Positions 1,796-63,308 of a stretch of DNA of 64,000 nt are shown one piece after another. Positions within the stretch are counted from its first letter, which is position 1, and each line of letters opens with the position of its first letter. The stretch is from IMG/VR virus record IMGVR_UViG_3300037067_015039, positions 45,213-109,212 of that record; one strand, given 5' to 3'. The position numbers and the translations under genes were made by a program. This DNA comes from a virus (Duplodnaviria > Caudoviricetes). The notes below the pieces were generated by a model that was not told the origin of the DNA, searched no databases, and worked only from the letters and a program-made list of their open reading frames with translations.

Positions 1796-3064
1796 TTATT
1801 CCTTATTGATGACTTTATTAAGATGCGTATTCCCAAACGAAAGATACCTCACCGGAATCCCGGGCGCAATTTCCGACAAACCATTTACCACAGAATTTGC
1901 CTGACGAAGCCCATAGGAATAATCCTTATGGTTTACCATAATTTCTTTGCTGATTTCGCGCAATTGTTCGAATGGCCGGCTTCGATAACAATCAGCATAA
2001 ATCCAGCGTTTTTGTTCTTTGAGAATATCCATATGGGTTATGGCCAATTCGTCCACTTTGCCAACAACACTGAGAGCGTATTTGAACGCTGGCACATCGA
2101 AATACCCTCTTCTCAAATCCCCCTGCCACTGATTATTTATGTTATGTTCCGGCTGCACATCAAATCCGTGGACATTCAGATCTTCGCTTTCTGTGACAAA
2201 TGGGCCTGCGCCATGCCTGGTGAAATAGGTTCGAACCACCCCAATGGTTGTTATGTCTAATTTATCGGTCGCCCCATAGTGATTGATAATCTCAAAGGCG
2301 TTATTGAACGTACAATCCGTCCAGGTGACGTGATTCCCAAACCCGTGGGTCTCGTCCAGCAGGACTCCCTGAGCGCCTTCAAAGACAATTGCATTCGGCA
2401 AACTATTCCTGATGTCATAAAACGTGCCAACTTTAATTTGTTGGAGCCAATCTTTGTAGAAATTTCTAACGTCTACCGGAGTTTCATTCTGCATTAGATC
2501 GTAAAGATTTTGGGTTTCTTTGCTATTGATAAATTTCTTGCATTGCCGAAGTTTTGTTTCTTTTATCCATTCCAGTCTTTCAATCGAATGAGGACATGGA
2601 ATATCCGAGACCTCGAGAGATAGCCCATCTAACTGATCTGCCCGGGTTTCCCCAACTCCCATTCCGCAGGATCCGTGTCTATCTTTTCCTCGAGACATTT
2701 CTTTGAGTCTGTTTGCTCTCCAATGCCAGGGAGTGACAATAACACTCTTGGGGTTTATTAGTAGGCGCTCAAGCCCATCATAAACTCCACTATGTTTCAG
2801 TACCACATTCTCAATGAGCATTGAGTAGGGTTCAATAAGCATATATTCCGATAAATAGGTCCGGCACCCGGGGATGAAGGTGCCGGACCCAAATTGAGCA
2901 AAGGTGTGATGGAGTCCGTCAGGCAACACGACGTTATGCCCTGCCTGCGGACCTCCATTATATCGGACTACCCAATTGGCCTTGTGTTCCCGGCAAAGAA
3001 AATCAACCATCGTTCCTTTGCCCTCATCCCCGAAGGCCAAACCTGCGATAATGAATATTTGCAT
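1796..3064 (-). CDS. divergent adenylosuccinate synthetase-family protein (PurA-like, not PurZ)
   Basis: FGDEGKG, RYNGGPQAGH, GSCGMGVG, FEGAQGVLLD and TRHGAGPF motifs; aspartate-binding loop is non-canonical. Confidence 0.9.
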   Translation of the reverse strand: MQIFIIAGLAFGDEGKGTMVDFLCREHKANWVVRYNGGPQAGHNVVLPDGLHHTFAQFGSGTFIPGCRTYLSEYMLIEPYSMLIENVVLKHSGVYDGLERLLINPKSVIVTPWHWRANRLKEMSRGKDRHGSCGMGVGETRADQLDGLSLEVSDIPCPHSIERLEWIKETKLRQCKKFINSKETQNLYDLMQNETPVDVRNFYKDWLQQIKVGTFYDIRNSLPNAIVFEGAQGVLLDETHGFGNHVTWTDCTFNNAFEIINHYGATDKLDITTIGVVRTYFTRHGAGPFVTESEDLNVHGFDVQPEHNINNQWQGDLRRGYFDVPAFKYALSVVGKVDELAITHMDILKEQKRWIYADCYRSRPFEQLREISKEIMVNHKDYSYGLRQANSVVNGLSEIAPGIPVRYLSFGNTHLNKVINKE

Positions 3065-3080: not shown

Positions 3081-4118
3081 TTACAGTCTATCCACGCCAC
3101 CGGCAGAGCCGGCGACAGATGGAAGATTTTCGGCTGAGTACCGGCTGATCTCTCCGGTAGCCTTCGATAAAGGAACAAGCGCCGAAGAAATACCGGCGTC
3201 GGCAACCCCATCGGCAACCAGATCATCAATCCCCACGTATTCCTCACAGATCGCTACCGCGGATACGATCGTTTCACAAATCTTGTTCGGATCTTGCAGT
3301 TTGATGACGTTCTGCTGGCCAAGGAGATTTACCCAGTACTTTTCCAGGCTCTTGTCGGCATAATGGGAAGTCATATTGGGAATGATGAAGAACACGTGAT
3401 ATTTCTCTTCGAGTTCCTTCAGGATATCTGAGAATTTCAGATCATCTTGAACAGTATCGCCGATAATATCACTTATTTTCTTTTTGGAGAGGACGTCATA
3501 GGCATGCTCGTCACCTATGAAAAATATATAACCCTTTCGGCCCCTCTTTTCGAAATGATCATGAGCGGTGTGCCGGGCCATGAAGTAGGCCGCCAATTCA
3601 TATTCCTCTTCATAAGTTCCACCACCAAGGCCTGTAAGCCAGAGGTTTGTAAGGTTATCGTCTATTTCGATACCGGATTCAAACTGGCCAATCTGGAAGG
3701 TTCCAGCATGCCCGTTGGAACGCATAGCATCGTAATCATCAACGGCGCCGATCATGATAGCCGGATATCCATCTCCCAGGTATTTCTTCCCTGACGCCTT
3801 ATCGTCCAGGAAATGCCCCATTAATTTACTGAGGGCCTTCTGGATCATCTTTGGAACTTCCTGCATTGACCCAGTGGTATCGGTGATGACAGCGATCGGG
3901 ACCGAAATCGGGTGCGCATCAGAGTCTCTTGCCTCTCTGATCTTAACGCCTTTGGGTTCAAGTGAAGGATGAACGGCTGCCGCGACGGTGCCGGTATCAA
4001 TATCGTGACTATATTTAAATGTGGCCTTTTCTTCAGTGATTCCCATGGAATGCGCCAGGTTAATTCTTGCCGTAGTCCGTGACTTATAATCCTCTGATGA
4101 ATAACTACTTCCACCCAT
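3081..4118 (-). CDS. vWA-domain protein
   Basis: MIDAS-like DTTGSM, GGG..E and FFIGDE motifs. Confidence 0.8.
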   Translation of the reverse strand: MGGSSYSSEDYKSRTTARINLAHSMGITEEKATFKYSHDIDTGTVAAAVHPSLEPKGVKIREARDSDAHPISVPIAVITDTTGSMQEVPKMIQKALSKLMGHFLDDKASGKKYLGDGYPAIMIGAVDDYDAMRSNGHAGTFQIGQFESGIEIDDNLTNLWLTGLGGGTYEEEYELAAYFMARHTAHDHFEKRGRKGYIFFIGDEHAYDVLSKKKISDIIGDTVQDDLKFSDILKELEEKYHVFFIIPNMTSHYADKSLEKYWVNLLGQQNVIKLQDPNKICETIVSAVAICEEYVGIDDLVADGVADAGISSALVPLSKATGEISRYSAENLPSVAGSAGGVDRL

Positions 4119-50732: not shown

Positions 50733-53700
50733 TTAGTCTTCTGGAGGTTCCGGAAGACTTCCGCTTGTATCATCAGGTGGAGACTGCAATCCAATAGATT
50801 CCTCTTTATACTTTCTAATGCCTAACTTTTTGAGGGACTTTTGAGCTGTTGCAAGCATTCTCATATAAGCATTGTCAATCCTCCTTCTTTTTTCATCAGC
50901 GCTATATTTCGGGTCTTGAATTACCCTATGGATTTCACGGTTGATGCTTTTAAATCTTTCCGTGGCATACCTTAATTCATCATACATCTTACGTTCTTGT
51001 GGGGTAAATGGAGGAAGATCAAATCGGTTTCCCTCCTTCCTGGATTGCTTCCTACTTCTATATTTGAGATTGATATCTGTCCACAAGTCATAAACCTTAG
51101 ATATGCTTCGCAGACTGGCATGAGGGAAACGAACTGCGATTGAACGGATCAAAGGCACATCTGCCAACTGAGTCGTTGGCAAGGTCTTACCCTTTGGAGG
51201 CGAAATAAGGTTAGTCGCCGGATCAAGGATTACTTTTGTAGCCAACCTGGCGGAGCCGCCAAAAGTTGAAAACATGGCATGCTCAATCTTTACAGGGCTG
51301 ACATGAATGCCCATTTTGGCCATTAACAACGCCGTTTGATTAGCGAATTCGCTCGTATACCAGTTTGATCGATACTCCGGCAGATAATTTTTCTGCATCC
51401 AATCACTTTCAATTTCCCGATTGGTAAAGAAATTTTTGTTATACATTAATTCAAACGGAGTTTTAGCGATCGTTGGTACGATCCCCGGCGTAATGTTTGA
51501 AATCAAATTCTTAATGAAATTATCAAAAGCAGTCGGATCCTTGGTATCTATATATTCCGCCAGCCGCTCTGCCGGGGTTGCATAAAACATTCCCCAACTG
51601 AATGGTTTTGGAACTGGTATCCATGGAGTAGCCTGACTCAATCCCGGGATCCCCTTTGTCGGAAATAACCAGAAAAGATCTCTAAGCCACCAAGGAGCTT
51701 CGCGGTATCTTTCGTCATCCTTATTTAGATAATAAACTAAAATTGATATTGCTTGGAAAATAGCGCCTTTAAGCAACGCTCCTTTAGGGTTGAACTTGTG
51801 GACTCGCACAAATTTGTCCACATCTTGAATAGATGCATTAAAAAATGGGATTGTGAGATTGAATCCTCTAGCCCAGGCACCGATCCTTTGAAAATCCAGT
51901 GTCCCTTCACGAGATGCGAGGCCAGCTTCACGGATGGAGCCGCCACGTTTTCTTGTTTGGGTATAAATAGAGACTCGAGTCATAGCCTCAGATATTTCGC
52001 TCAAGATTCTCAATGCGTCTATTGGATGCCGAAGCGCATATTCCATCTTCCCGGACATAAGATCGCGCAATGCCATACTCATTTCTTTGCGATCCATAGA
52101 AGCCATAGCAGAATGAGGGCCACCAGACCTCATCCATTCCTGGTAATCTTTGTCCTTCATTATCACATGCCCAAGCCCTTGCAGCGTGTGATAGCCAGGG
52201 ATATATCCAATATTGGTTTGAGCCCATGCGGTGAGCATATCTCGGGCAATATTTCGGGAAGCAAATTCCGGGTTGATTCCAGTAGCGCCCATTCTGAGGA
52301 CTGATGCGGGGATAGCAGCAATTTTCATAAGGATCCCGATGGAATCTTTATCCAGTCCCTTTATAGCATTATAAAGATTTGGTTCAAGCTGGTATAAAAT
52401 CGGTTTCCCTTTGAAATACACCGTTATGATATTCTCTTTAGGGGAAGGAATAGCATTAGGGACAAATATCGTTGCAAGCTGGTCCAGATTAAGATTTGGG
52501 TCCGAAAGATCAACTCCCGCAGCAGAAAGCGCATTTTTGATTCTATCCAAGGCGAATGTCTCAGGAATAACTTTTGCCGCCAATGGTCCGGAAACCCATC
52601 TCCCGGAGCCATCCTCCTTAGTCAAATTCGCTAATGCCTGTCCTACCAAATTACGTTCGGCCACATTGATAAGCGTGTAGGTGTTTTTAATGATCGATTC
52701 CAACGGATCTATAATTGGCCGCCAGGACCCCTTCATTTTCTTTACCGGCTGCCATAAATCCACCATGCTTGATCCGGCCTTAGCTCTGCTTTCTGTGGTT
52801 TTCTCCCCGGCACCAGCCTCATACATCCTATGGAATGGTACAAAAAACTGGTTAAGGAGTTTGATGCTGATATATTGATCCACCGAGAGCATTCCGCAAT
52901 CCCGGAAATAAATCAAAAGCTGGTCCTGATATTTATAAAGTTGCAGCAGTGTGTCTTTGGTTATCTGTGCCTCTGGAGTTGCCGCCTTTAACGAATTAAC
53001 ATCAAAGGCCGGCACGGATGGATGGCCGAGCATAGTTGGAGTTGAACCCACAGTGAGCGTACTCAGATCGAATCCTTGCTCTTGTAAGGATTCCTTGGCC
53101 TCCTGAACTGTTATTCCAACCTCAATGCCTTGCAGTCCCTTCTTTTCTAAGGTTCTCAGGGCAATAGCAGTAATACGCAGATCATCTAACCTATCCTTCA
53201 TTGGTTCAAGAATCTGTTTTAGTCCTGGGCCAAGAAGGGTATCAAGATTTTTACCGAAAGTCCCCACCTGGAGGAAATGCTCTGCCCTGGCAGCCCAACC
53301 GCTTAAAGCTTGGGCAAGTTTGCCAGGATCGTCTTCCATTGGGATCTTCCGGCCCTTGGTTATAATCTTCACAGCTTCATTGATTGGATTAAGATGATTG
53401 ACCATCCCCGTATAAATTTTTTCGAACCATCCCATTTGATCATATACTGGCTCTTCTACCGAAATATGGGACAGAATTTTCGCTGAACTCGTTTGATCCA
53501 GCCAGCGTTTATAATCTCGTTGAGCTTCCTTTAGGATTCCCGCGAGATCGGGATTTCGAGCCAATTCACCTTCAAACATCAAATTCACGCCGGGGCATAG
53601 TTGCGCCGCTTGCGCGGGATCCGTAATCCAATACCGGATATATTCGGCAAAGCCTTCCGGGAGTTTAGATTGTCCAGCGTAAGCCTTAGTGGCAATTGCC

Positions 53701-56700
53701 TCAAGTTCCACTCTATGAGGGGCCAACGGCCGCCAATTTAGTTGTTTCCCGTGTATTCCCCACAGGATCTTATTAATAGCATGGCCAACTTCATGGGCTG
53801 CAACAGCAACATCCTGAGCTTTTTTAATTCGAATTGCTGTTGCATTTATTTTAAAAATTCCCAAAGCTCTTTGTCGGAATCTTCCATATCTGATTGGGAC
53901 TTTGAGCTTTTTAGCCAAATTGATAAGAATGTCATTTCTCCTCACTAAATCCTTTTTATTTATAACAGGAGGAGGAGCGTAATTTGGTGCGCCGGATGTT
54001 TGAGGAGGAGCCGGCAGGACTGGAGCGCCCGGAGAACTCGCCATTGCCGACGTAGGTTCTTCTTCTGGTTGGGGAATTTCTTCGCCCTCTTGACTACGCT
54101 TTAAATCATCCATCATCTCTTCGACATAAGGGAAATAATGGATTGCTTCCGCCTGGGCCTGGGTATTATCAAAATCGACTTCGCTACTTACGTGATCAGA
54201 CACTTCTTGCCCAACCTTGTCGACATAAATTCTTTCATTCAACCAGTCGGTATTGTCTTGAGTTTTGATCCAATTGAGCAAATGTTTTGCTATGACAGGA
54301 TTTTGATGAACAATCATTTGATCGTCCAAAGTTCCTTGACCATTCAGAATTCTATCAATAGACTCTTGAGCTTGCTTGAGCCAGAATTCTGCCGCTTGTC
54401 TCGCCTGTTCTATAGACTGAGGAACGTCACCGCGGCCGACTTCCATAGATCTGGACCCATCTGCTTCGACATTGAGACCTATTGACATAGCGCTTGTCGG
54501 GCCTCCACCACCTGGCGCAGAAGGAGTCCCGGTTGGGATAACTCTTACAGGTTTATTCCGTTCGAAGATTTTATCGAGAAGTTTAGGGCCTTCCACATCA
54601 TCTAATGGGACGAAGACTCTAGGGCGTCTTGATTCTCCTCCTACAATGATTTCTGTAATTGCGCCCTGATCTTTCAACGTCTTAACCGCGGCTTCGCGGT
54701 ATGCACGTGAAAGATTGATTTCCATCCGGCGTTCACCATGGATAGGGGGCGTCATTTGGATACGCCAATTATTATCCAGTTCGATAGTTGCGCCATCCCT
54801 AACCATCGTGAATATTGAAAGCCCTGACTCTTTAGTAAAATCGTTGCCCATACCAAGCCGGGATTTAAGAGGTCCAATCTCGTTTGTCTTTACCTGGATG
54901 CCAATTACCGGAGAACCATCAGCCAAAACCGCTCGAACAATTTTTAGATTATGGAGTTGTCCGTCCCCTATAATTTTGTCATGAATTGGGAAGACTGCTC
55001 CAGTAACCATATAAACCGGGCGCCGGGTGGTCTCCGGGATTTCTGCAAATTCCTTTTCCCATAAATCCTTTGCCTGCTCTAAGGCTGTTATGGGAGGTCC
55101 GGGAAGTCTTTCAGGCGTCGCAGCCTTATCTGAAGGCGTACCTTTGACAATTTTATAATTCTCATTGAATTCTTTAACTTCAATTCTATTTTTTGTGAAT
55201 CGAACAGTCCGGAGGTCGATTTTTCGATTTCCAGTCAGAGGATCAACATAATTATATGCGGCCGATATTTTCCCGCTCCTCTTATTGGTTACAAAACCAA
55301 TAAGATCTGCACTTCGAGGGATATTATCCCATTTAAGCTTTTCGGTTTTAAAATCCCCTTCCATCTCAAGGAATTTTGTTTCCATATGAGTGTTGGGATC
55401 TTTGTAAATAACCTCTTCTTTTGTGATGACAATATTGCTTCCACGAATTTTTGAAATTCCGGTATCAAAAGTACCTTGCTCCTTCGCAACTGCGAGATAA
55501 GCCTGATAACGACCATAGAAGTTATTAAACACATCGTTTTGGACGTCGACAGGAAGAACCATTATGCGATTCAGAAATCCTTCAACATTGGTGTCGACGT
55601 TGGGCTTCAATGATTTGTTAGGAGTCAGCCAGCCCATGGCATCTAAAACATCCACACCACTGCCATAATCGCCTTTTACTTCATAATTGTTATGCGCCAG
55701 ATCATGGACGAGTGACATCAGTGCGGTACGCCCATAACCATCTGTGAGATCCTCAATATCGAACAGACTTCCACCAAGCGATTCCCGGTTGCCCTGCGTC
55801 ACAGCGCCTAAACTGGCCAGCCGGCGCGAAACTGCATTAATCAATCTCTGCTGACCAGCCACGTTGGTTTTAACCAACATGATTATTGGAGGAGTAACCT
55901 GGTTCGATCTGTGAGCGCGACCAAAGAACTGCATTTGCTGATCGGCCGACCAGGATAATTGAGCGCAATACATAATTCGGCGTTTATTTGCAGTCGGTAT
56001 CCCTTTTTCAGCTTGAGCCGATATACCAGCACTGCCGGCTCCTGTGATGATCAAGACATCAGCTTCTCCGTTTTGGAACCGGCGCAGTTCTGCATTATTG
56101 ATGGTTTCCCCGGGTTTCTTCCCGGCTGGTTTGCGGCGTACCAGTTTATTGCCTTCAATTCGTTCAGTTCGCCCAGAAACTTCCGCAACTTTTCCCCATC
56201 CGCCAAGATGGTTCGCAATCATATCCATAGGATTATCCGGAAGATTCAGATATTCGAGTTCATTCAAAAGCTCTTCCTGCATCCGGAGATTTTCTTGGTT
56301 TATTTCTCCGGTAGCAATCTGAATTGTGGATTGTGGGTTGTCCGGATCCGGGACATCTTCCATCTCCTCGAGGGGAAACCAGTTTTCGATATAAGATTTA
56401 ATCATCTGCCTTGGGCCAATATCGATATCTTCTATACTCTTACCGGCCGCCTCAGCTTTTGCGACTTCCTTCTTCATCAGAGTTTCATTCGTGCTGAGGA
56501 TATTGATGATCGGCGCCATGCCGTTTTTAAGAGATTCATCCAAATGAGTCAAAACAGACTGCATCTGGTAGGTCGTCATCAGCATAAGGAAAAATCTTTG
56601 TTGGGTGCTATAGAACTGGGAATAGCGCGTTCCCCCGCGCTTTTGGTTCGCATTGCCCTCGGCTATTTCCATCTGCTTTATCAATTTAGACCACATGCTG

Positions 56701-59700
56701 GCAGATTTATTGTATTGCTCAAGCTGATATTCATTGAGGTCATGATTTACATAATCGTAATTCACGCCTCGATAACTGATCTGCCGGCTTATGAATGCTC
56801 CAAGTGATTTAAGATCTCGAGAGAGCATTTCCATAGCTCCCAATCCACCAGTGTTCATGGCATTCATAAAAGCGTCAAAATCTGCGAAAGCTGTTCCTTC
56901 CCCCCATAATCCAAGCCGATTCATATATCCCATGTTATGGGCGAGAGTAGCTCCGGTAGCGCTCACATAAAGTATCTTGGCCTTTGGAAATTGTCTGGCA
57001 AGCAGCAGCCCCATCTCACCGCGGTCGGTGCCAGTGGCACTTGTCGAAGCTCCGCCCTGATTAGTTCCCACGGCGTTTTTCATTGCGTGGCAATTGGATA
57101 CTAATATTCCATCGGCAAAGTAGTTGTGATTGTCTGCAACTTCGAGGTCATAAACGATTCGATCTTGTGCGCTACGAGACTGCAATCGGTCAATATCTCC
57201 TGATTCCAAAATCTCAATACTGACCACCCTAGATATTCCAAAATCTCCGTTTTCCTGTGATCGAGATACTTCCATCTGCAAAATCTTGCTCGTTGCCTTT
57301 GCTTCAATCCTTTCACATTGCGTTGAAACTGGATCCCGCACCAAACGCAAATCCGCAGAGGATTCATCTGTGCATAATAATTCCTTCGACAATTCATGCT
57401 GCAAAAACGAAGGCGGCTGATTCTCTTGCCGCGCTTTTTTATTTTCGGGTTGCCACAATAAAAACATACCGGGGCTAAGTTCTCCGGCAAGGACATATTT
57501 TCTATCTTTTTGATTCCAGATTTTATGATTTGGGGTGCAAGTGAAACTTCCATATTCATGAGTAATTTTAACGAGAGAACTATTGATAGTCCGTGGCAAC
57601 CATCGTAATACTGGCTTCCATTCATACCGATTGCATTCTTTATTATATGACAAAACCTTAACTGCTAGTTGTTTTTCTACAATTTCTCCTATTGGTATTT
57701 CACCACGATCGGTTTTAATCAGTGTTTCATATGTGAAACATTCATCAAAAACTATAACTCCATCAAATTCTTTAGCTTCGGCAGGCTGCAACCAATCAAT
57801 AATCTGATTAAATCGTTCCCGTTTGCTCTTCCAGTTACTTGCGGCTGTGCCATATTGGGTGAAGAGAATTCCTTCTGTGCTATCGATTGGAGCGCCCTTA
57901 GCAAATTTGGATTCATTCTGGTGGATAACGGATAGAGGGACGCCTACACCACCAATGTCTCTCTTGGCATCCTCATATAATTGCTGAGTAGCCGAAATCC
58001 AGACAGCTTTCTTCTGTCCGGTTTCCCGGAGATAGTGATAAATAATTCCAGCTATTTCTCTTCCTTTCCCGACTCCGGTTCCATCACCAATCCAGAAACC
58101 AGCCGTGTCTCCATTTGGCAAAGTGGTCCCAAGTCGCTGAACGGCATATGTAATAGTTTCTAATTGGGCATCACTTAATCTTCCGTCTGAGATCACTTCC
58201 GGAGGCAAGTTTATTTTTACCTTAATATCTGGCGATTCCACGCTTCCGAGAGTTGCGCTTTCAATAAGTTCTGCCGGGTGAGGCTTAGATCCTTTGTATA
58301 CAGCTTTCTTGGGTTTGTACTTTACATAAGCGTCTGTTTCTTCTTCTCCGAGTGCTTTGTCTTGTGCATCTAAAGCTACCTCGATGGGAGCCATGTCCCC
58401 CGGGCCTCCAGAAGTAGGAGCACCAGGTCTTCCGCCCAATCCGGGAGTAGTTTCAGGTTCTCCGGCATCGGTAGGTTTTCTTTCAATATCAATTGGTGGA
58501 GGTCCCGGGAGACTCCCACCGGGTCCTCGCTCCCCGCTTTCAGGAACGTGTCCCAATTCACCGGGTCTAGACTCATCCCCTGATGGTACGCCAGGCCGCC
58601 CTCCGGTAACGCCAGGGCTTCCACTACCAGTTCCAGTAGTGGGTTCTGCCGGTCCAATGACTGGCCCCTCAATCGGTGGAGGAGCTTTAATGCTTTCGAT
58701 TGGGCTTGGTCTAGTGATTCTTCCATAGATATCCTCGCCTGCGATAACACTCAACTTTTCTAAAGCTTCCGCTGGAGAAAGCTGATGAGCTATCAAAACT
58801 TTTGAGCTTCTTTCTGCCCCTGTGTCTCCAGGAGTAGGACCAGTCTTGTCTATGACTATCATGCGATTGTCATAGGTGGTTCCCATCTTCTGATAGTATT
58901 GACCCTTCAATCCAAGATCCGCCCGGACGTTGTAATGAGCTTGTACCTGATTCCACCATCTGTTGAATTTTGATCTGTGATGCCCCATCCCTTCGCCAAC
59001 AATAGCCACAAGCCGGCCGCCTGGCGCAAGCTTTTGCAGGGCATTCATTACGTGCCGGGCGCCAAACTCCATGCCGTGTAGCTTCCCTGGGCCGGCAGAG
59101 AATGGAGGATTCATGAGAATTACATCAGGAGTGTAATCCGATAAGGATGTCCCTGTCGTCGTCAGATGCAATGCATCGACAGTGCTTGTTGGGAAACCCC
59201 GGAGCTTCAGAACAGTGACCCTTCTTTCGTCTATTTCGTTCGCTCTTACCTGGTATCCGCGAATTCGCATCATTGTGGCTAACATACCAGTGCCAGCACT
59301 CGGTTCTAGAGCCGTAAGAGGAGAACTTGGATTCCCCAAAGCATAAGCAGTCAAGAAAGCCTGCATAGGAGGAGTTGAGAATTGCTGAAGTTCAATCTGT
59401 TCGGTGGTGCGATCGGACTGAACCGCAAGGCGTCCCTGGAGTTCTTCCAACCGGGCCATAGTCGCAATTGGATCGTTAAAATCAACCATCCCGCTTTCTT
59501 CTATGTATTCTGATACGGCGCCCTCGAAGACGTCATACATATCTCGAAGCGTGTATTTCCCCTGTCCACGGGCGCCGCCGAAGGATTCATTCGCCATAGC
59601 CTGCAGCATCGGATTATTAAACTTCGCTCCATTAACCAAAGCGGCTTTAATTTTAGAAAGAAGATCTCTGAATTGTTGATCCCTGGTTATTTCTTCAGGC

Positions 59701-62700
59701 TGCGCAGGTTCTTTCTCTGCTGGTGGCTCAGGAATAATATCAAGAATGGTCGGTGGAATTGCCGGTGGCGTTGGTGGCACCACGAGTTCCTCTGTTATAG
59801 GAGGAGCCTTCTCGGACGGTGGGATAGTAATGGGTTCTGGAATTATTTCAGGTTCTAATGTTGGTGGCGGTCCAGGAACAGGCTCAATCACTTTTGGTGG
59901 CGCCGGTATTTCTGCTTCTTGCGGCTCAATAGTTTTGGGTGGAGGAGTAAGAGTTTCCCCTTTTCTTCCATCAATCGTCTCTTTAGCGATATCTTCAGCA
60001 GGACCAGTTAGAAATCGGAATTTTCCTTTTCCTTCCACCTGCTTTTTGAGAAGTTCCAATTGAACCCTTAAATGCTCAGGCTTAGAAACTACCGTCATGA
60101 ACTCTTCCCAGGCGTTCGTATCCGGGTTCCACTTTTCCGCTCGTAATCCAATTGAGGTCGCCGCGGATTTCGGATCCAGAATGCCCATAAGCTTATGTTC
60201 TTGGCCTTGTTCAACAGCCAGAAGAATATCGTCTTCTGTGAGCATATTGGGGTGATAGAAGAAGGTTCCCTTGCCTGGAATGTCGACATTATTTAATTGT
60301 GGGATTTCGGCAACCATTGAGAGGAAATCATTTATCAGATCGCGCCTTTGCCAATCTTGCAGCGTCGATTCTGGAACAAATACGACTTGGCGATTTCCAC
60401 TTCCAATCGTTTCTATTTGAGACAGAATAGTAGAAGGTCTTTCTGGAACAGTCTCTTCTGGCGTTTCAGGAGTAGGAGTAATCGTTTCAGGAGTAGGAGG
60501 AAGTGATTCAGGCTTTTCATACCGCGGCTCAAGTTTTCCTTCATCTTCGGCAGCAGCTTTTTCCCCTTTCATTTTCTTAAAAGCTGCTTCTGGGCTTTCC
60601 TCAATCCCATAGGCAAATCCAACCTTCATTTGATTGTCGCCAACGGTAAAGGGATTTTCTTCAAACCACTTTTGAGCCTTAGCCATCGCCGCATCAATTT
60701 CTTCCTTCGTGTCGGCTTTAGTAACGAAGTCGTCACCACCCAAGCGATATACAGGTATCCCGGATTGCATAAATCCCTGAGCGGCATGCTGTAGGTATCT
60801 ATCCCCCTCGTCCTGACCATAGACGTCGTTAATTTTCTTCATTTTGTCGAGGTCAAGTGATGCCACAAACTTTTTAAATGGAGCACGTTCCCATGCGGAG
60901 CGATTACGAAGTTGGGTGAGTTCATCCGTAAGGAGTTCCTTTTCAATTTCCTCTCGGGTCATCTGCGATACTTGTTTTCTGCGAATCAGGTTTTTTCTGC
61001 GATCCGGCTTGTCATCCCGAGACTTAGTTCTTCTCTCCTCGTCAGTTCTCCCTATAGGGAGTTCCTCTGATGGCCCCGTAGGAATTGCGGGTGCTGGTTC
61101 GGGCGCTGTAATAGGAACTGGCGGAGCTACTGGACCAACTGGGGGTGTCTCTGTGGTAGGTTCAACAGGGGGTGCCACCGGCGCGGCTTCAGCAGCAGGA
61201 GGAGGAGGAGGCGTTGGCAATGTTTCAGCAGGAGCCTTGGGTTTTTCTTCCGCAGTCTCAAGATCCTTTTCGGCTTTTTTTGCCTCAGCTACATTCCGAA
61301 TGGCAATTACTCCACCGGCTTCTGGAATGCTATCAATCTCTGCTTGTATCTTTTTTACTTCATCAGCAGCATAGGCAAAGCCTGTTTCGTCACCATTCGC
61401 TTGAGCGGTATCCCGGCGCTTAATCATCTCGAAGAGCTGTCTTCCAAGAGAATCCACACGCGGATCTCTTGTGCGCATAACCATAACCGCTTTAGATCCA
61501 GTCAGCTTTTCAAATTCCTCTACTTTGGCTTTAGCCTTTGATTCGGCTGCATCAATCTCATTTTCCAATTGCCGAATTACTTTGTTCTCCGCCTTTTCTG
61601 TGGCTTTAAGTAGATTGTTTATAACGTCAGGAGGAAGATTCGCTTCCTGTAAATTCTTAGCATAATTTAAACGCCGTTGCTGTACCGTACCTCTGATATA
61701 ACTTCTCGCCCTGGAAACTCCAATTGCAGAAGTAAAAGCAGAGAAAGCGGCGCCCGAAACACCACCAGCAATGCCTTGCCGGTTGTTTTCTTTCATATTC
61801 ATTGGTTCGCCCGTAAGACTACTGACGACCCAATCTTGCCCAATATTCTGCATCCACTCTTGCCCGAATTCTTCGAGGTATCCTTTTGCGGATCCAGATA
61901 ACATCCCCCGGGCCATTCTGTCTTTAATCCATCTTGTAGCCCATCCTCCACTGATTTTATCAAGTCTTGAAAGGCCACGTTCTATGGGCAATGCTTCCGT
62001 TGAACCCAACCCAACACCGGCAATAAAGGCGGCAAATAACTGTGTCGGATTAGCGCCAGCATTGTACGCCTCTTCATAGGTCGAACCTGCCTGGACAAGT
62101 GCGCCGGCTGCCATAGTAGTGGCTGCTGCTGGCAATCCCGCTTCTCCACCCATCATGCCCATAGCAATAAAGCCTATAGTAGATCCCAATCCTTGTGGAA
62201 TCATTGAAGCCCAGTATTCTTCTTGGAATTTTGGATTTACAGGGAGACTATCTTCAATCTTACGCTGAACCTCATTCGCCATTTTGAACAGAGTTGAATT
62301 TTCCAGCTTAGGCATTCCTTCTGGTTCAAGCCCTTGTTCCATTCGGCCTATATTTTCCATCTGCTGAGTAGATGCATCGATCAAATGAGGGATGGAGCCA
62401 ATAGTTTTCATAGCCATTGGGACTTGATCTGCAATGCCTTGGAAGAAAGAATTTACAGCATTTGACATGCGATCTTTAGGAATAGGAATTTTCCCTTCCT
62501 TCATCCTTTGCAAATTCAATTTGGCCATCTGTCCCGGTTTTACTTCTGGTGTAGTTTCCTTTACAGGCATTAATTTGCGATAAGGGGCTCCATTAATTAT
62601 TGTAATTTCGGGAATTGGCTGTCTTGCCTGTTGCAATGCCACTTCCTTAATCTCTTCTTCAGAAGTGATCTCAGTCGGCAAGGCTGGCGCAGTAGGCAAT

Positions 62701-63308
62701 TGCCCAGGAGTCGGCAACTCAACTTTAGCTTCCTCGATTTTCTGAGGTTTAAAAGCTGAAATTACTTTCTGTTCACGCTCTTTTATTATTTTGCTTCTTT
62801 GTTCCGGAGTCAGTTTCTTTAATTCCGGTGGCAATTGGAAAGTCTTTGCTTGTTCAATTGCTGCCGGAAGGTCGATTGCAACTTTTTCTAAAGGTGGTGG
62901 CGTTTGAAGTTCTTGCGCCGGGCTTGCTGGTGCGACTTCTTTTTTCTTTGGTTGAACAACCTTTTCGCCCATCCCCGAAGGAGGAGGAGGTAGACTTGGG
63001 GCGAATACTCCCTTGATAGTCCCAGTAATTTTCTCTAGAATCCCCGGCTCTTTGGGTTTAGCCGCCGCATCCTTGTCGGCATAATATTTCTGCCAGTATT
63101 TGTAATTTTGTTGGAGCGTTAAATCCTGAGATTCTTTATCAATCTTTTCAAAATCAGGATAAATAGTTTTAAGCAGATCCCGCCTTACCTCTAGATCTTC
63201 AATGCCATGGAAATTAGGATCAAGAACAAGGTCCCGTGGAGTTTTATATTTCTGTTTAAACTGATTTTGCCAGTTAAGATCAGTCTCAGGAGAGGGCACA
63301 TTAGGCAT
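50733..63308 (-). CDS. giant polyvalent (DarB-like) virion/ejection protein: GGDEF + amino-DNA methyltransferase + Strawberry-notch SF2 helicase (with intein) + zincin + LPD38-like C-terminus
   Basis: DELTQLRNR...DLDKMKKINDVYG..EGD...YRLGGDDF; QQFSTPP, LEPSAGTG, MNPPF; GDGTGVGKGR, DE|CH, QFFGRAHRSNQ; HEVGH...EGFAEY; IPFFNASIQ...IPVPKPF. Confidence 0.9.
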   Translation of the reverse strand: MPNVPSPETDLNWQNQFKQKYKTPRDLVLDPNFHGIEDLEVRRDLLKTIYPDFEKIDKESQDLTLQQNYKYWQKYYADKDAAAKPKEPGILEKITGTIKGVFAPSLPPPPSGMGEKVVQPKKKEVAPASPAQELQTPPPLEKVAIDLPAAIEQAKTFQLPPELKKLTPEQRSKIIKEREQKVISAFKPQKIEEAKVELPTPGQLPTAPALPTEITSEEEIKEVALQQARQPIPEITIINGAPYRKLMPVKETTPEVKPGQMAKLNLQRMKEGKIPIPKDRMSNAVNSFFQGIADQVPMAMKTIGSIPHLIDASTQQMENIGRMEQGLEPEGMPKLENSTLFKMANEVQRKIEDSLPVNPKFQEEYWASMIPQGLGSTIGFIAMGMMGGEAGLPAAATTMAAGALVQAGSTYEEAYNAGANPTQLFAAFIAGVGLGSTEALPIERGLSRLDKISGGWATRWIKDRMARGMLSGSAKGYLEEFGQEWMQNIGQDWVVSSLTGEPMNMKENNRQGIAGGVSGAAFSAFTSAIGVSRARSYIRGTVQQRRLNYAKNLQEANLPPDVINNLLKATEKAENKVIRQLENEIDAAESKAKAKVEEFEKLTGSKAVMVMRTRDPRVDSLGRQLFEMIKRRDTAQANGDETGFAYAADEVKKIQAEIDSIPEAGGVIAIRNVAEAKKAEKDLETAEEKPKAPAETLPTPPPPPAAEAAPVAPPVEPTTETPPVGPVAPPVPITAPEPAPAIPTGPSEELPIGRTDEERRTKSRDDKPDRRKNLIRRKQVSQMTREEIEKELLTDELTQLRNRSAWERAPFKKFVASLDLDKMKKINDVYGQDEGDRYLQHAAQGFMQSGIPVYRLGGDDFVTKADTKEEIDAAMAKAQKWFEENPFTVGDNQMKVGFAYGIEESPEAAFKKMKGEKAAAEDEGKLEPRYEKPESLPPTPETITPTPETPEETVPERPSTILSQIETIGSGNRQVVFVPESTLQDWQRRDLINDFLSMVAEIPQLNNVDIPGKGTFFYHPNMLTEDDILLAVEQGQEHKLMGILDPKSAATSIGLRAEKWNPDTNAWEEFMTVVSKPEHLRVQLELLKKQVEGKGKFRFLTGPAEDIAKETIDGRKGETLTPPPKTIEPQEAEIPAPPKVIEPVPGPPPTLEPEIIPEPITIPPSEKAPPITEELVVPPTPPAIPPTILDIIPEPPAEKEPAQPEEITRDQQFRDLLSKIKAALVNGAKFNNPMLQAMANESFGGARGQGKYTLRDMYDVFEGAVSEYIEESGMVDFNDPIATMARLEELQGRLAVQSDRTTEQIELQQFSTPPMQAFLTAYALGNPSSPLTALEPSAGTGMLATMMRIRGYQVRANEIDERRVTVLKLRGFPTSTVDALHLTTTGTSLSDYTPDVILMNPPFSAGPGKLHGMEFGARHVMNALQKLAPGGRLVAIVGEGMGHHRSKFNRWWNQVQAHYNVRADLGLKGQYYQKMGTTYDNRMIVIDKTGPTPGDTGAERSSKVLIAHQLSPAEALEKLSVIAGEDIYGRITRPSPIESIKAPPPIEGPVIGPAEPTTGTGSGSPGVTGGRPGVPSGDESRPGELGHVPESGERGPGGSLPGPPPIDIERKPTDAGEPETTPGLGGRPGAPTSGGPGDMAPIEVALDAQDKALGEEETDAYVKYKPKKAVYKGSKPHPAELIESATLGSVESPDIKVKINLPPEVISDGRLSDAQLETITYAVQRLGTTLPNGDTAGFWIGDGTGVGKGREIAGIIYHYLRETGQKKAVWISATQQLYEDAKRDIGGVGVPLSVIHQNESKFAKGAPIDSTEGILFTQYGTAASNWKSKRERFNQIIDWLQPAEAKEFDGVIVFDECFTYETLIKTDRGEIPIGEIVEKQLAVKVLSYNKECNRYEWKPVLRWLPRTINSSLVKITHEYGSFTCTPNHKIWNQKDRKYVLAGELSPGMFLLWQPENKKARQENQPPSFLQHELSKELLCTDESSADLRLVRDPVSTQCERIEAKATSKILQMEVSRSQENGDFGISRVVSIEILESGDIDRLQSRSAQDRIVYDLEVADNHNYFADGILVSNCHAMKNAVGTNQGGASTSATGTDRGEMGLLLARQFPKAKILYVSATGATLAHNMGYMNRLGLWGEGTAFADFDAFMNAMNTGGLGAMEMLSRDLKSLGAFISRQISYRGVNYDYVNHDLNEYQLEQYNKSASMWSKLIKQMEIAEGNANQKRGGTRYSQFYSTQQRFFLMLMTTYQMQSVLTHLDESLKNGMAPIINILSTNETLMKKEVAKAEAAGKSIEDIDIGPRQMIKSYIENWFPLEEMEDVPDPDNPQSTIQIATGEINQENLRMQEELLNELEYLNLPDNPMDMIANHLGGWGKVAEVSGRTERIEGNKLVRRKPAGKKPGETINNAELRRFQNGEADVLIITGAGSAGISAQAEKGIPTANKRRIMYCAQLSWSADQQMQFFGRAHRSNQVTPPIIMLVKTNVAGQQRLINAVSRRLASLGAVTQGNRESLGGSLFDIEDLTDGYGRTALMSLVHDLAHNNYEVKGDYGSGVDVLDAMGWLTPNKSLKPNVDTNVEGFLNRIMVLPVDVQNDVFNNFYGRYQAYLAVAKEQGTFDTGISKIRGSNIVITKEEVIYKDPNTHMETKFLEMEGDFKTEKLKWDNIPRSADLIGFVTNKRSGKISAAYNYVDPLTGNRKIDLRTVRFTKNRIEVKEFNENYKIVKGTPSDKAATPERLPGPPITALEQAKDLWEKEFAEIPETTRRPVYMVTGAVFPIHDKIIGDGQLHNLKIVRAVLADGSPVIGIQVKTNEIGPLKSRLGMGNDFTKESGLSIFTMVRDGATIELDNNWRIQMTPPIHGERRMEINLSRAYREAAVKTLKDQGAITEIIVGGESRRPRVFVPLDDVEGPKLLDKIFERNKPVRVIPTGTPSAPGGGGPTSAMSIGLNVEADGSRSMEVGRGDVPQSIEQARQAAEFWLKQAQESIDRILNGQGTLDDQMIVHQNPVIAKHLLNWIKTQDNTDWLNERIYVDKVGQEVSDHVSSEVDFDNTQAQAEAIHYFPYVEEMMDDLKRSQEGEEIPQPEEEPTSAMASSPGAPVLPAPPQTSGAPNYAPPPVINKKDLVRRNDILINLAKKLKVPIRYGRFRQRALGIFKINATAIRIKKAQDVAVAAHEVGHAINKILWGIHGKQLNWRPLAPHRVELEAIATKAYAGQSKLPEGFAEYIRYWITDPAQAAQLCPGVNLMFEGELARNPDLAGILKEAQRDYKRWLDQTSSAKILSHISVEEPVYDQMGWFEKIYTGMVNHLNPINEAVKIITKGRKIPMEDDPGKLAQALSGWAARAEHFLQVGTFGKNLDTLLGPGLKQILEPMKDRLDDLRITAIALRTLEKKGLQGIEVGITVQEAKESLQEQGFDLSTLTVGSTPTMLGHPSVPAFDVNSLKAATPEAQITKDTLLQLYKYQDQLLIYFRDCGMLSVDQYISIKLLNQFFVPFHRMYEAGAGEKTTESRAKAGSSMVDLWQPVKKMKGSWRPIIDPLESIIKNTYTLINVAERNLVGQALANLTKEDGSGRWVSGPLAAKVIPETFALDRIKNALSAAGVDLSDPNLNLDQLATIFVPNAIPSPKENIITVYFKGKPILYQLEPNLYNAIKGLDKDSIGILMKIAAIPASVLRMGATGINPEFASRNIARDMLTAWAQTNIGYIPGYHTLQGLGHVIMKDKDYQEWMRSGGPHSAMASMDRKEMSMALRDLMSGKMEYALRHPIDALRILSEISEAMTRVSIYTQTRKRGGSIREAGLASREGTLDFQRIGAWARGFNLTIPFFNASIQDVDKFVRVHKFNPKGALLKGAIFQAISILVYYLNKDDERYREAPWWLRDLFWLFPTKGIPGLSQATPWIPVPKPFSWGMFYATPAERLAEYIDTKDPTAFDNFIKNLISNITPGIVPTIAKTPFELMYNKNFFTNREIESDWMQKNYLPEYRSNWYTSEFANQTALLMAKMGIHVSPVKIEHAMFSTFGGSARLATKVILDPATNLISPPKGKTLPTTQLADVPLIRSIAVRFPHASLRSISKVYDLWTDINLKYRSRKQSRKEGNRFDLPPFTPQERKMYDELRYATERFKSINREIHRVIQDPKYSADEKRRRIDNAYMRMLATAQKSLKKLGIRKYKEESIGLQSPPDDTSGSLPEPPED
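57093..57740 (-). mobile_element. intein (216 aa) inserted in the helicase DExH motif
   Basis: N-terminal CFTYETLI; block B CTPNHKIW; C-terminal VYDLEVADNHNYFADGILVSN followed by Cys; splicing restores DECH. Confidence 0.92.
57101..57496 (-). pseudogene. out-of-frame nested ORF within the intein: Zn-finger repeats + truncated DUF559/Vsr-like endonuclease tail
   Basis: CFYCG...RFCSMNCRR...CVWCG..F...RFC, then DHRKTEILEYLGWSVLRFWNQEI; catalytic core not visible. Confidence 0.7.

Follow-up and report, generated by a model that had tools for sequence, protein, structure and literature searches.

The 64,000-nucleotide stretch of viral DNA analyzed here (hereafter, the window) is the 3' 64 kb of the IMG/VR virus record IMGVR_UViG_3300037067_015039, which is 109,212 bp long and rated complete by CheckV. 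Within it, a single open reading frame (ORF) for a polyvalent protein of 4191 aa (positions 50733..63308 on the minus strand, as for all the features of the window described below) contains a 216-codon insertion in helicase motif II. We found that this insertion is best explained as a class-1 intein placed at DE^CH (the caret marks the insertion point), that it belongs to a family of inteins containing a Vsr-like nuclease gene in the +1 frame, and that the nuclease of the window copy has decayed by internal deletion. We give this reading as a whole a probability of about 85%.

The intein spans positions 57093..57740 and reads CFTYETL...HNYFADGILVSN (C-terminus GILVSN), flanked by VFDE and CHAMKN. 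Directly upstream, the N-extein codons F-D-E of the DExH motif lie at 57741..57749, and the insertion site, FDE^CH, falls in the motif II (Walker B) codons of the Strawberry-notch (Sbno)-like module of the protein. The hidden Markov models (HMMs) for intein N- and C-termini, TIGR01445 and TIGR01443, matched with 2.9e-11 and 2.6e-7, and Pfam Intein_splicing (PF14890) with 37.2 bits against a cut-off of 35.8 bits (3.3e-9). The splicing residues are Cys1, T69-P-N-H72 in block B, N216, and the +1 Cys at 57092-57090, and every residue invariant in the family is kept. A preliminary description of this DNA, made from its letters alone, had proposed an intein open for 216 aa at these positions with Ser rather than His as the penultimate residue, and both points held; this Ser is typical of the family, with VSN^C in most loci, including members with intact endonucleases. 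An AlphaFold model of the intein frame, generated with an alignment of 32 family members, had a predicted local distance difference test score (pLDDT) of 92-98 in the N-terminal splicing domain (residues 1-100, 57441..57740) and in the C-terminal one (residues 166-216, 57093..57245, RVVSIEILESGD...VYDLEVADNHNYFADGILVSN), the latter being dual-coded with the nuclease tail. In the linker between them (residues 101-165, 57246..57440) the score was below 50, and this segment is predicted to be disordered, in keeping with the earlier impression that the middle of the intein frame looked like filler; its +1 reading contains the zinc fingers. The ordered parts matched the HINT fold of the DnaX, NrdJ-1, DnaB, and RecA mini-inteins (Foldseek probability 1.0). 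With this residue set, the HMM and fold matches, and a precise in-frame insertion relative to an uninterrupted allele, the window element is a class-1 intein with predicted splicing. A search of the 109-kb genome found no second intein.

The uninterrupted allele was found in a related viral contig of 109,283 bp, IMGVR_UViG_3300037067_017859 (L049), which reads ...IIFDECHAMKNAVG, with no insert and with FDECHAMKN at about positions 2990-3010 of the locus. Its C-extein protein is 91% identical to that of the window, and the DNA of the two is about 80-85% identical across the gene. Because L049 carries motif II uninterrupted, the intein boundaries are exact, which bears out the previous placement of the insertion in the DExH motif, and the intein is a presence/absence polymorphism in this motif. 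No signal of a co-conversion tract was seen around the insertion site, where the identity between the window and L049 was flat at about 75-90% on both sides. Separately, beyond 2.1 kb upstream of the site the DNA identity drops to about 35-40%, which suggests that a module of the polyvalent protein has been exchanged or has diverged there.

The second reading of the intein is a +1 frame open for 187 codons from stop to stop (57664..57104), with a TAG stop at 57103-57101, so that the feature occupies 57101..57664. The preliminary description had rightly placed a nested ORF inside the intein, but the segment that it gave, 57496-57101, is only the part that begins at one internal ATG. From N- to C-terminus the frame encodes MNMEVSLAPQIIKSG..., CFYCG...RFCSMNC, CVWCG...RFC, and RWKYLDHRKTEILEYLGWSVLRFWNQEI...ITTTLPMEY. 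No other +1 open run in the 4191-codon gene is as long, the runner-up having 124 codons, and when the intein frame was resampled synonymously this length was reached in only 0.6% of cases. By alignment, the start homologous to that of full-length relatives is the ATG at 57557..57559 (MNMEVS...), located within the intein codons T-H-E. No Shine-Dalgarno sequence precedes this ATG or the other three candidates (the four are at 57625, 57559, 57553, and 57496), whereas 16 of the 27 large genes of the window have one. The first zinc finger (57389..57466) is complete, with its four Cys, and matches FCS/MYM-type zinc fingers through the family profile. The second (57278..57349) is truncated at a deletion junction, 57278/57277, and has lost its fourth Cys, so that of the two repeats described beforehand only one is whole. 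The C-terminal tail (LDHRKTEILEYLGWSVLRFWNQEI..., 57152..57265) is DUF559/Vsr-like, as had been proposed: PF04480 aligned to it over profile positions 70-107 of 109 (E 2e-7, 31.3 bits vs. a cut-off of 20.6), and NCBIfam NF007294 agreed with this assignment. No other DUF559 gene was found when the 109-kb genome was searched.

A protein search with this ORF retrieved four homologues of 188-284 aa (P0003-P0006). In the longest, two CxxC...FCxxxC fingers are followed by a linker and by ...AIEIDGKTH...FLDHRKTE.L..LGW.VLRFWN. Its N-terminus (MNMENLSALATTRSG) matches the window ORF, and so does the C-terminal ITTTLP of the shorter P0003 and P0004; N-terminus, fingers, and tail are all common to the homologues and the window ORF. 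The nested tail of the window is 56-64% identical to the tails of the full-length homologues. When viral contigs were scanned with an alignment of the homologues, 47 loci were found; one contig can recur under loci of different collections, and the distinct intein-bearing sequences in the viral set number 35. The contigs of the four homologues were reached in this way, though P0003 and P0004 themselves were not located with certainty. In 45 of the 47, an ORF of 225-355 aa, or a shorter remnant, lies wholly within a longer open frame on the same strand, always at +1. The preliminary description had called for homologous inteins at this site with a full-length nested ORF, and these are the ones. 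The long frame is a helicase with a motif-II intein either at DE^C...(S/H/K)N^C(H/Q) or, three residues downstream, at DExH^C, and across the nuclease gene the intein frame is filler rich in K, R, E, N, and S. The same nested layout was present in 26 of the 30 metagenome loci inspected and in bacterial assemblies of Longilinea arvoryzae KOME-1, Anaerolineales, Desmonostoc, Blastocatellia, and Paceibacterota. Two cultured phages carry a full-length +1 nuclease, Pseudomonas phage MR14 (gp44, L211) and Vibrio phage 1.088.O (NVP1088O_73, L212); in both it is unannotated and lies under a single coding sequence labelled 'helicase' or 'P-loop' NTPase. The host helicases of the family are SNF2, ResIII/DEAD, and RecQ-like proteins and a helicase-methylase fusion, to which the window adds the Sbno-like AAA_34 type. 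The window intein is thus a member of a large family of helicase motif-II inteins with a separate endonuclease gene on the same strand in the +1 frame. In the full-length homologues the nuclease has its own ATG and stop and lies in the same +1 position, which upholds the idea of a separate ORF in a dual-coding intein.

Two loci tie this nested layout to the published model in which a free-standing nuclease gene invades an intein. In L006 (1060-4837) an SNF2 gene is followed, after 133 nt, by a free-standing nuclease homologue of 315 aa with three fingers; motif II of the SNF2 gene is intact, and that gene has a different, large insertion at the P-loop (DMG^CFSADTEY...) that resembles a second intein. 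In L017 (3839-4648 plus flanks) a stop at 4015-4017 interrupts the host frame, which resumes from an ATG at 4024, and the nuclease ORF bridges this interruption; the stretch inspected showed no N-terminal half of an intein immediately upstream. This is the only locus of the set that looks fractured. As a separate observation, the SNF2 host of L014 (161-4189) contains, at residues 383-449 and thus ahead of its motif-II intein, a LAGLIDADG_3 domain; this gene probably carries two inteins of different types.

Next, we compared the window ORF with the intact members. From the alignment and the models, the family endonuclease is predicted to have two or three FCS-type zinc fingers joined by a helical linker to an EDxHD/Vsr-like nuclease domain. 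In the numbering of L005, a full-length member, E232, D234, G235, H238, and D247 were invariant in 36 aligned sequences, and the finger cysteines were nearly so. The family profile matched the DUF559 structure 3HRL (5.5e-13) and the catalytic domain of I-Bth0305I, 3R3P (0.013). The AlphaFold model of the L005 protein had a pLDDT of 89.9 and its top Foldseek matches were 3R3P, 3HRL, and 1VSR (Escherichia coli Vsr); its N-terminal part matched an FCS zinc finger. The window ORF is about 110-136 codons shorter than its relatives, and the gap runs from within finger 2 to just before KW(K/R)(F/Y)LD. It retains the start region, finger 1, and finger 2 up to RFC, and the next residues are RWKYLD. What is missing corresponds to about residues 106-241 of L005: finger 2 lacks its fourth Cys, and the helical linker, RGGNG, the first strands, E232, D234, and H238 are gone. 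The E-x-D-G-x-x-H block, invariant in the relatives, is therefore absent, and of the catalytic residues only the last Asp is kept (LDHRK). MAFFT aligned the two window fingers ambiguously with those of the relatives, which have two or three, and the Cys pattern and the KWKYLD anchor were used instead. The loss is a multiple of three and both frames are open across the gap, in agreement with the preliminary description, which had proposed an absent catalytic core and a frame-preserving deletion.

To see whether the double coding is under selection, the nuclease protein was kept fixed while its synonymous codons were permuted (2000 permutations per locus), and the stops arising in the host frame were counted. 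The permutations predicted 9-23 such stops, and none was observed in any of the 35 distinct loci; for the window the expectation was 5.95. Not one of the 2000 permutations per locus left the host frame open, with the exception of the 86-codon remnant of L047, where 8.8% did. The third frame had 9-47 stops (14-47 in full-length loci). The codon choice of the relatives is thus selected to keep the host frame open. In the center of the element, pairwise identity was 0.37 in the nuclease frame versus 0.26 in the intein frame, and the nuclease value was the higher in 99% of 528 pairs. This indicates that the nuclease is the constrained reading there, and that the intein linker is a by-product that needs only to be free of stops. 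The description of the nested ORF as 'overprinted' is therefore misleading as far as the center is concerned. The identity of the N- and C-terminal intein parts climbs together with that of the nuclease, as expected of an intein and a nuclease that move as one unit.

The two ends of the nuclease gene overlap structured intein segments. Its start lies within intein codons near block B, either T-H-E (cATGAa) or G-Y-V (ggATATGtt). At the other end, the most conserved motif of the nuclease, LGWSVLRFWNxE, shares nucleotides with the intein strand RVVS(I/V)E(I/V)LExGD, and ITTTLP overlaps HNYFA of block G. In the window, the tail GWSVLRFWN and the intein strand RVVSIEILE are likewise the same nucleotides. 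Both readings are structured in the models, with a nuclease strand at 260-265 followed by two helices and an intein strand at 168-178. Over the GWxVLRFWN/RVxSIEILE stretch, nucleotide identity reached 0.84, the maximum of the element, versus 0.60-0.69 elsewhere, and identity at the nuclease wobble phase was raised to 0.70 versus 0.42-0.52. Outside this stretch, blastn gave essentially no link between the window and other loci.

Other members of the family have lost internal parts of the nuclease as well. These are L024, with an ORF of 225 aa, L046 (109 aa), L047/48 (86 aa in a 163-aa intein), and L165 (56 aa). When the +1 frames of L046 and L047/48 were read, both kept GW.VLRFWNQEI. Since the tail persists in these remnants and shares its nucleotides with the intein strand, the DUF559 tail of the window points to a constraint from the splicing domain rather than to residual nuclease function, and it probably survives in this way. 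In the RecQ-like host of L046 (DEAH^C...NHN^CASRWGHDFRP), the 109-aa remnant (105 aa from the first ATG) keeps the E-x-D-G-x-x-H...D block and is without the linker and part of a finger, a path of decay different from that of the window. L046, L047/48, and L165 are later stages of decay, and the window copy is an intermediate one. In the homing cycle of Goddard and Burt, from 1999, the endonuclease reportedly decays after fixation and the splicing domain is kept; the window copy resembles an intermediate in such a decay toward mini-inteins, with the difference that here decay is constrained to internal deletions in multiples of three.

From these data, we propose the following sequence of events. 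The helicase precursor would be translated through the whole element and the intein would splice in cis, so that motif II, and hence the activity of the Sbno-like module, would depend on splicing. In intact relatives, the endonuclease would be made separately by internal initiation and would cut intein-less motif-II alleles, with the element then being copied in by repair. In the window, finger 2 would have lost its end to an internal deletion of about 110-136 codons, a multiple of three, that also took away the linker and the catalytic Glu, Asp, and His. The constraint of the intein frame would still maintain the start region and the DUF559 tail, and the zinc fingers would not yet have decayed. 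The endonuclease would be dead and homing lost, and the intein would still have to splice. Only internal deletions in multiples of three, between the two dual-coded ends, would preserve the host protein. Most probably, the window copy is an immobile relic that has a dead nuclease and is turning into a mini-intein.

Some observations weigh against this interpretation. No close relative of the window intein was found in the viral, genome, and metagenome collections, the best matches having about 50% identity in the N part and about 60% in the C part, and because of this the end-points of the deletion are defined at the protein level only and the event is undated. About 65 linker codons that should be unconstrained are still open in +1, and only one of the eight finger cysteines is lost, which may fit a recent deletion or retained selection on a zinc-finger protein. 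As the zinc-finger codons lie outside the part constrained by the intein and are nonetheless open with their cysteines, the deletion would be recent. In the relatives, the ATGs are conserved and the usual start context is AAAGGAT-ATG, in which the Shine-Dalgarno-like bases are too near the ATG for a canonical ribosome-binding site. Programmed frameshifting that fused the N-intein to the nuclease is unlikely, because the nuclease ORFs have these conserved ATGs and a free-standing homologue exists in L006.

The observation on the cysteines leads to the possibility that the truncated ORF, with fingers and tail, is still translated and has a role of its own, for example as a sequence-specific binder of the homing-site DNA or as a regulator. 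The length of the +1 frame, so rarely reached by the resamplings, the complete finger 1, and the three of four Cys kept in finger 2 speak for it. However, none of the candidate ATGs has a Shine-Dalgarno sequence in a phage that uses them for most of its genes, finger 2 has lost its fourth Cys, the tail and the start are explained by the intein frame, other loci have different and larger deletions, as in neutral decay, and no close relative was found in which conservation of the remnant could be seen; we regard this role as improbable. A related and marginally more plausible, though still unlikely, proposal is that the two-ended overlap is a functional 'entanglement': the nuclease gene could not be cleanly lost and only internal deletions would be tolerated, and the truncated zinc-finger protein may be made and bind motif-II DNA as a nuclease-dead binder that protects or marks the allele. 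Taken together, a retained DNA-binding role of the window remnant has a low probability. It is less probable again that the intein is incompetent for splicing, with the Sbno-like helicase module inactive and the element a tolerated disruption. The penultimate Ser in place of His and the 65-residue disordered loop would be compatible with it, but C1, T69/H72, N216, and the +1 Cys are all present, the Ser is the family norm even next to intact endonucleases, the HINT fold is predicted with pLDDT >90, and the 12.6-kb frame is intact.

That the endonuclease was once an in-frame domain, shifted later by compensating frameshifts or by sequencing errors, would agree with the usual in-frame position of intein endonucleases and with an intein-frame middle that looks like non-protein filler. 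Nevertheless, a +1 ORF that has an ATG and a stop of its own is found again and again, in dozens of independent assemblies, isolate genomes, and cultured phages, the ORF ends overlap structured intein segments and hence could not have been in frame, L006 has a free-standing homologue of the same length, and codon choice keeps the host frame open, so that we consider this origin highly improbable. Short partial HMM matches can be spurious, and a chance open frame with a spurious DUF559 hit was also considered; with 31.3 bits against 20.6, a tail of 56-64% identity, and an N-terminus and fingers that are homologous too, this is the least credible of the explanations. Chance, sequencing error, and compensating frameshifts were all rejected on the family-wide evidence, and the preferred explanation continues to be a class-1 intein whose separate +1 nuclease has decayed by internal deletion.

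Regarding the host gene, its frame is continuous and unbroken over 4191 codons (12.6 kb). Pfam domains detected in the polyvalent protein were GGDEF, a small methyltransferase, the Sbno-like AAA_34 P-loop/helicase (2.6e-95), Helicase_C_4, and LPD38. The GGDEF (diguanylate cyclase) domain is at residues 794-906 (window 60591-60929, minus strand; E 3.3e-10), upstream of the methyltransferase and Sbno-like helicase modules, and is an odd module for such proteins. The G+C content of the intein is 39.8% versus 45.8% for the host gene.

Inteins are the textbook case of an endonuclease domain in frame with its host. Out-of-frame intein endonucleases have already been published in preprints of 2025-26, and the same-strand Vsr-like family described here is a new variant. 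Gosselin, Arsenault, and Gogarten (bioRxiv 10.1101/2025.01.02.630785) described actinophage inteins whose endonucleases are LAGLIDADG or VSR-like on the antisense strand or EndoVII-like on the same strand, in 'frame 3'. They noted that, apart from these cases, split inteins were the only inteins known to be associated with VSR-like endonucleases, and proposed that a free-standing endonuclease gene had invaded the intein, with later decay toward mini-inteins. As in those elements, the inteins of the present family are contiguous and presumably splicing, and their endonuclease lies outside the intein frame; one of the actinophage types is also VSR-like/EDxHD, with an HHpred match to 3R3P. In contrast, their VSR-like enzymes are antisense, whereas here the gene is on the same strand at +1, has N-terminal FCS-type zinc fingers, and sits in helicase motif II; moreover, it overlaps structured segments at both ends, while their secondary ORFs are mostly outside the splicing domain. 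According to the same authors (10.1101/2025.01.02.630785), the endonuclease of the Synechocystis dnaX intein is an antisense LAGLIDADG. Phillips et al. (bioRxiv 2026) described a contiguous, widely distributed cyanobacterial dnaX intein with an out-of-frame endonuclease, encoded in an overlapping frame and under purifying selection, and attributed it to secondary invasion of a mini-intein; its host gene is a different one, and the paper uses neither the term Vsr nor DUF559.

The nuclease lineage itself has precedents. The EDxHD/Vsr-like lineage was first predicted by Dassa et al. 2009 (PMC2677866) in fractured genes, that is, split inteins with a free-standing Vsr-like endonuclease gene. Shared features are the nuclease superfamily, its association with inteins in DNA-metabolism genes of phages, the same strand, and a 3' end that overlaps the C-intein by 6-69 bp (PMC2677866). 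Fractured genes, however, comprise two host ORFs, with a non-coding gap of 27-51 nt ahead of the endonuclease gene, and rely on trans-splicing, whereas here the host frame is uninterrupted: in the window the helicase gene is not split into two ORFs, and the intein that surrounds the out-of-frame endonuclease ORF is contiguous, with the host frame open. I-Bth0305I, characterized by Taylor 2011 (PMC3239194; PDB 3R3P), is encoded in a group I intron. The full-length relatives keep the catalytic E, D, H, and D residues, and their predicted nuclease domain best matches 3R3P; they differ in that they are not encoded in a group I intron, and the window copy lacks E, D, and H. In a literature search that did not cover subscription journals, we found no paper on a same-strand +1 zinc-finger/EDxHD endonuclease in helicase motif-II inteins.

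Collectively, the family represents an alternative, apparently common, to the in-frame endonuclease, namely a Vsr/EDxHD gene one base out of step within a contiguous intein. Codon choice keeps the host frame open over about 800-900 nt, and two structured and conserved segments share their nucleotides. The family links the 'fractured genes' of split inteins to canonical inteins and targets the most conserved helicase motif in SNF2, ResIII/DEAD, RecQ-like, and Sbno-like helicases. It is invisible to standard annotation, and even cultured phages carry the nuclease under a single 'helicase' coding sequence; two of them, MR14 and 1.088.O, may serve as experimental systems. Other leads are mini-inteins that tolerate a long disordered loop and helicase-site endonucleases for studies of specificity. 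The window adds a view of the homing cycle in its decay phase, in which a nuclease without its core can be set against a sister allele that has no intein, and a reason for the tail of a nuclease to persist after the enzyme is dead.

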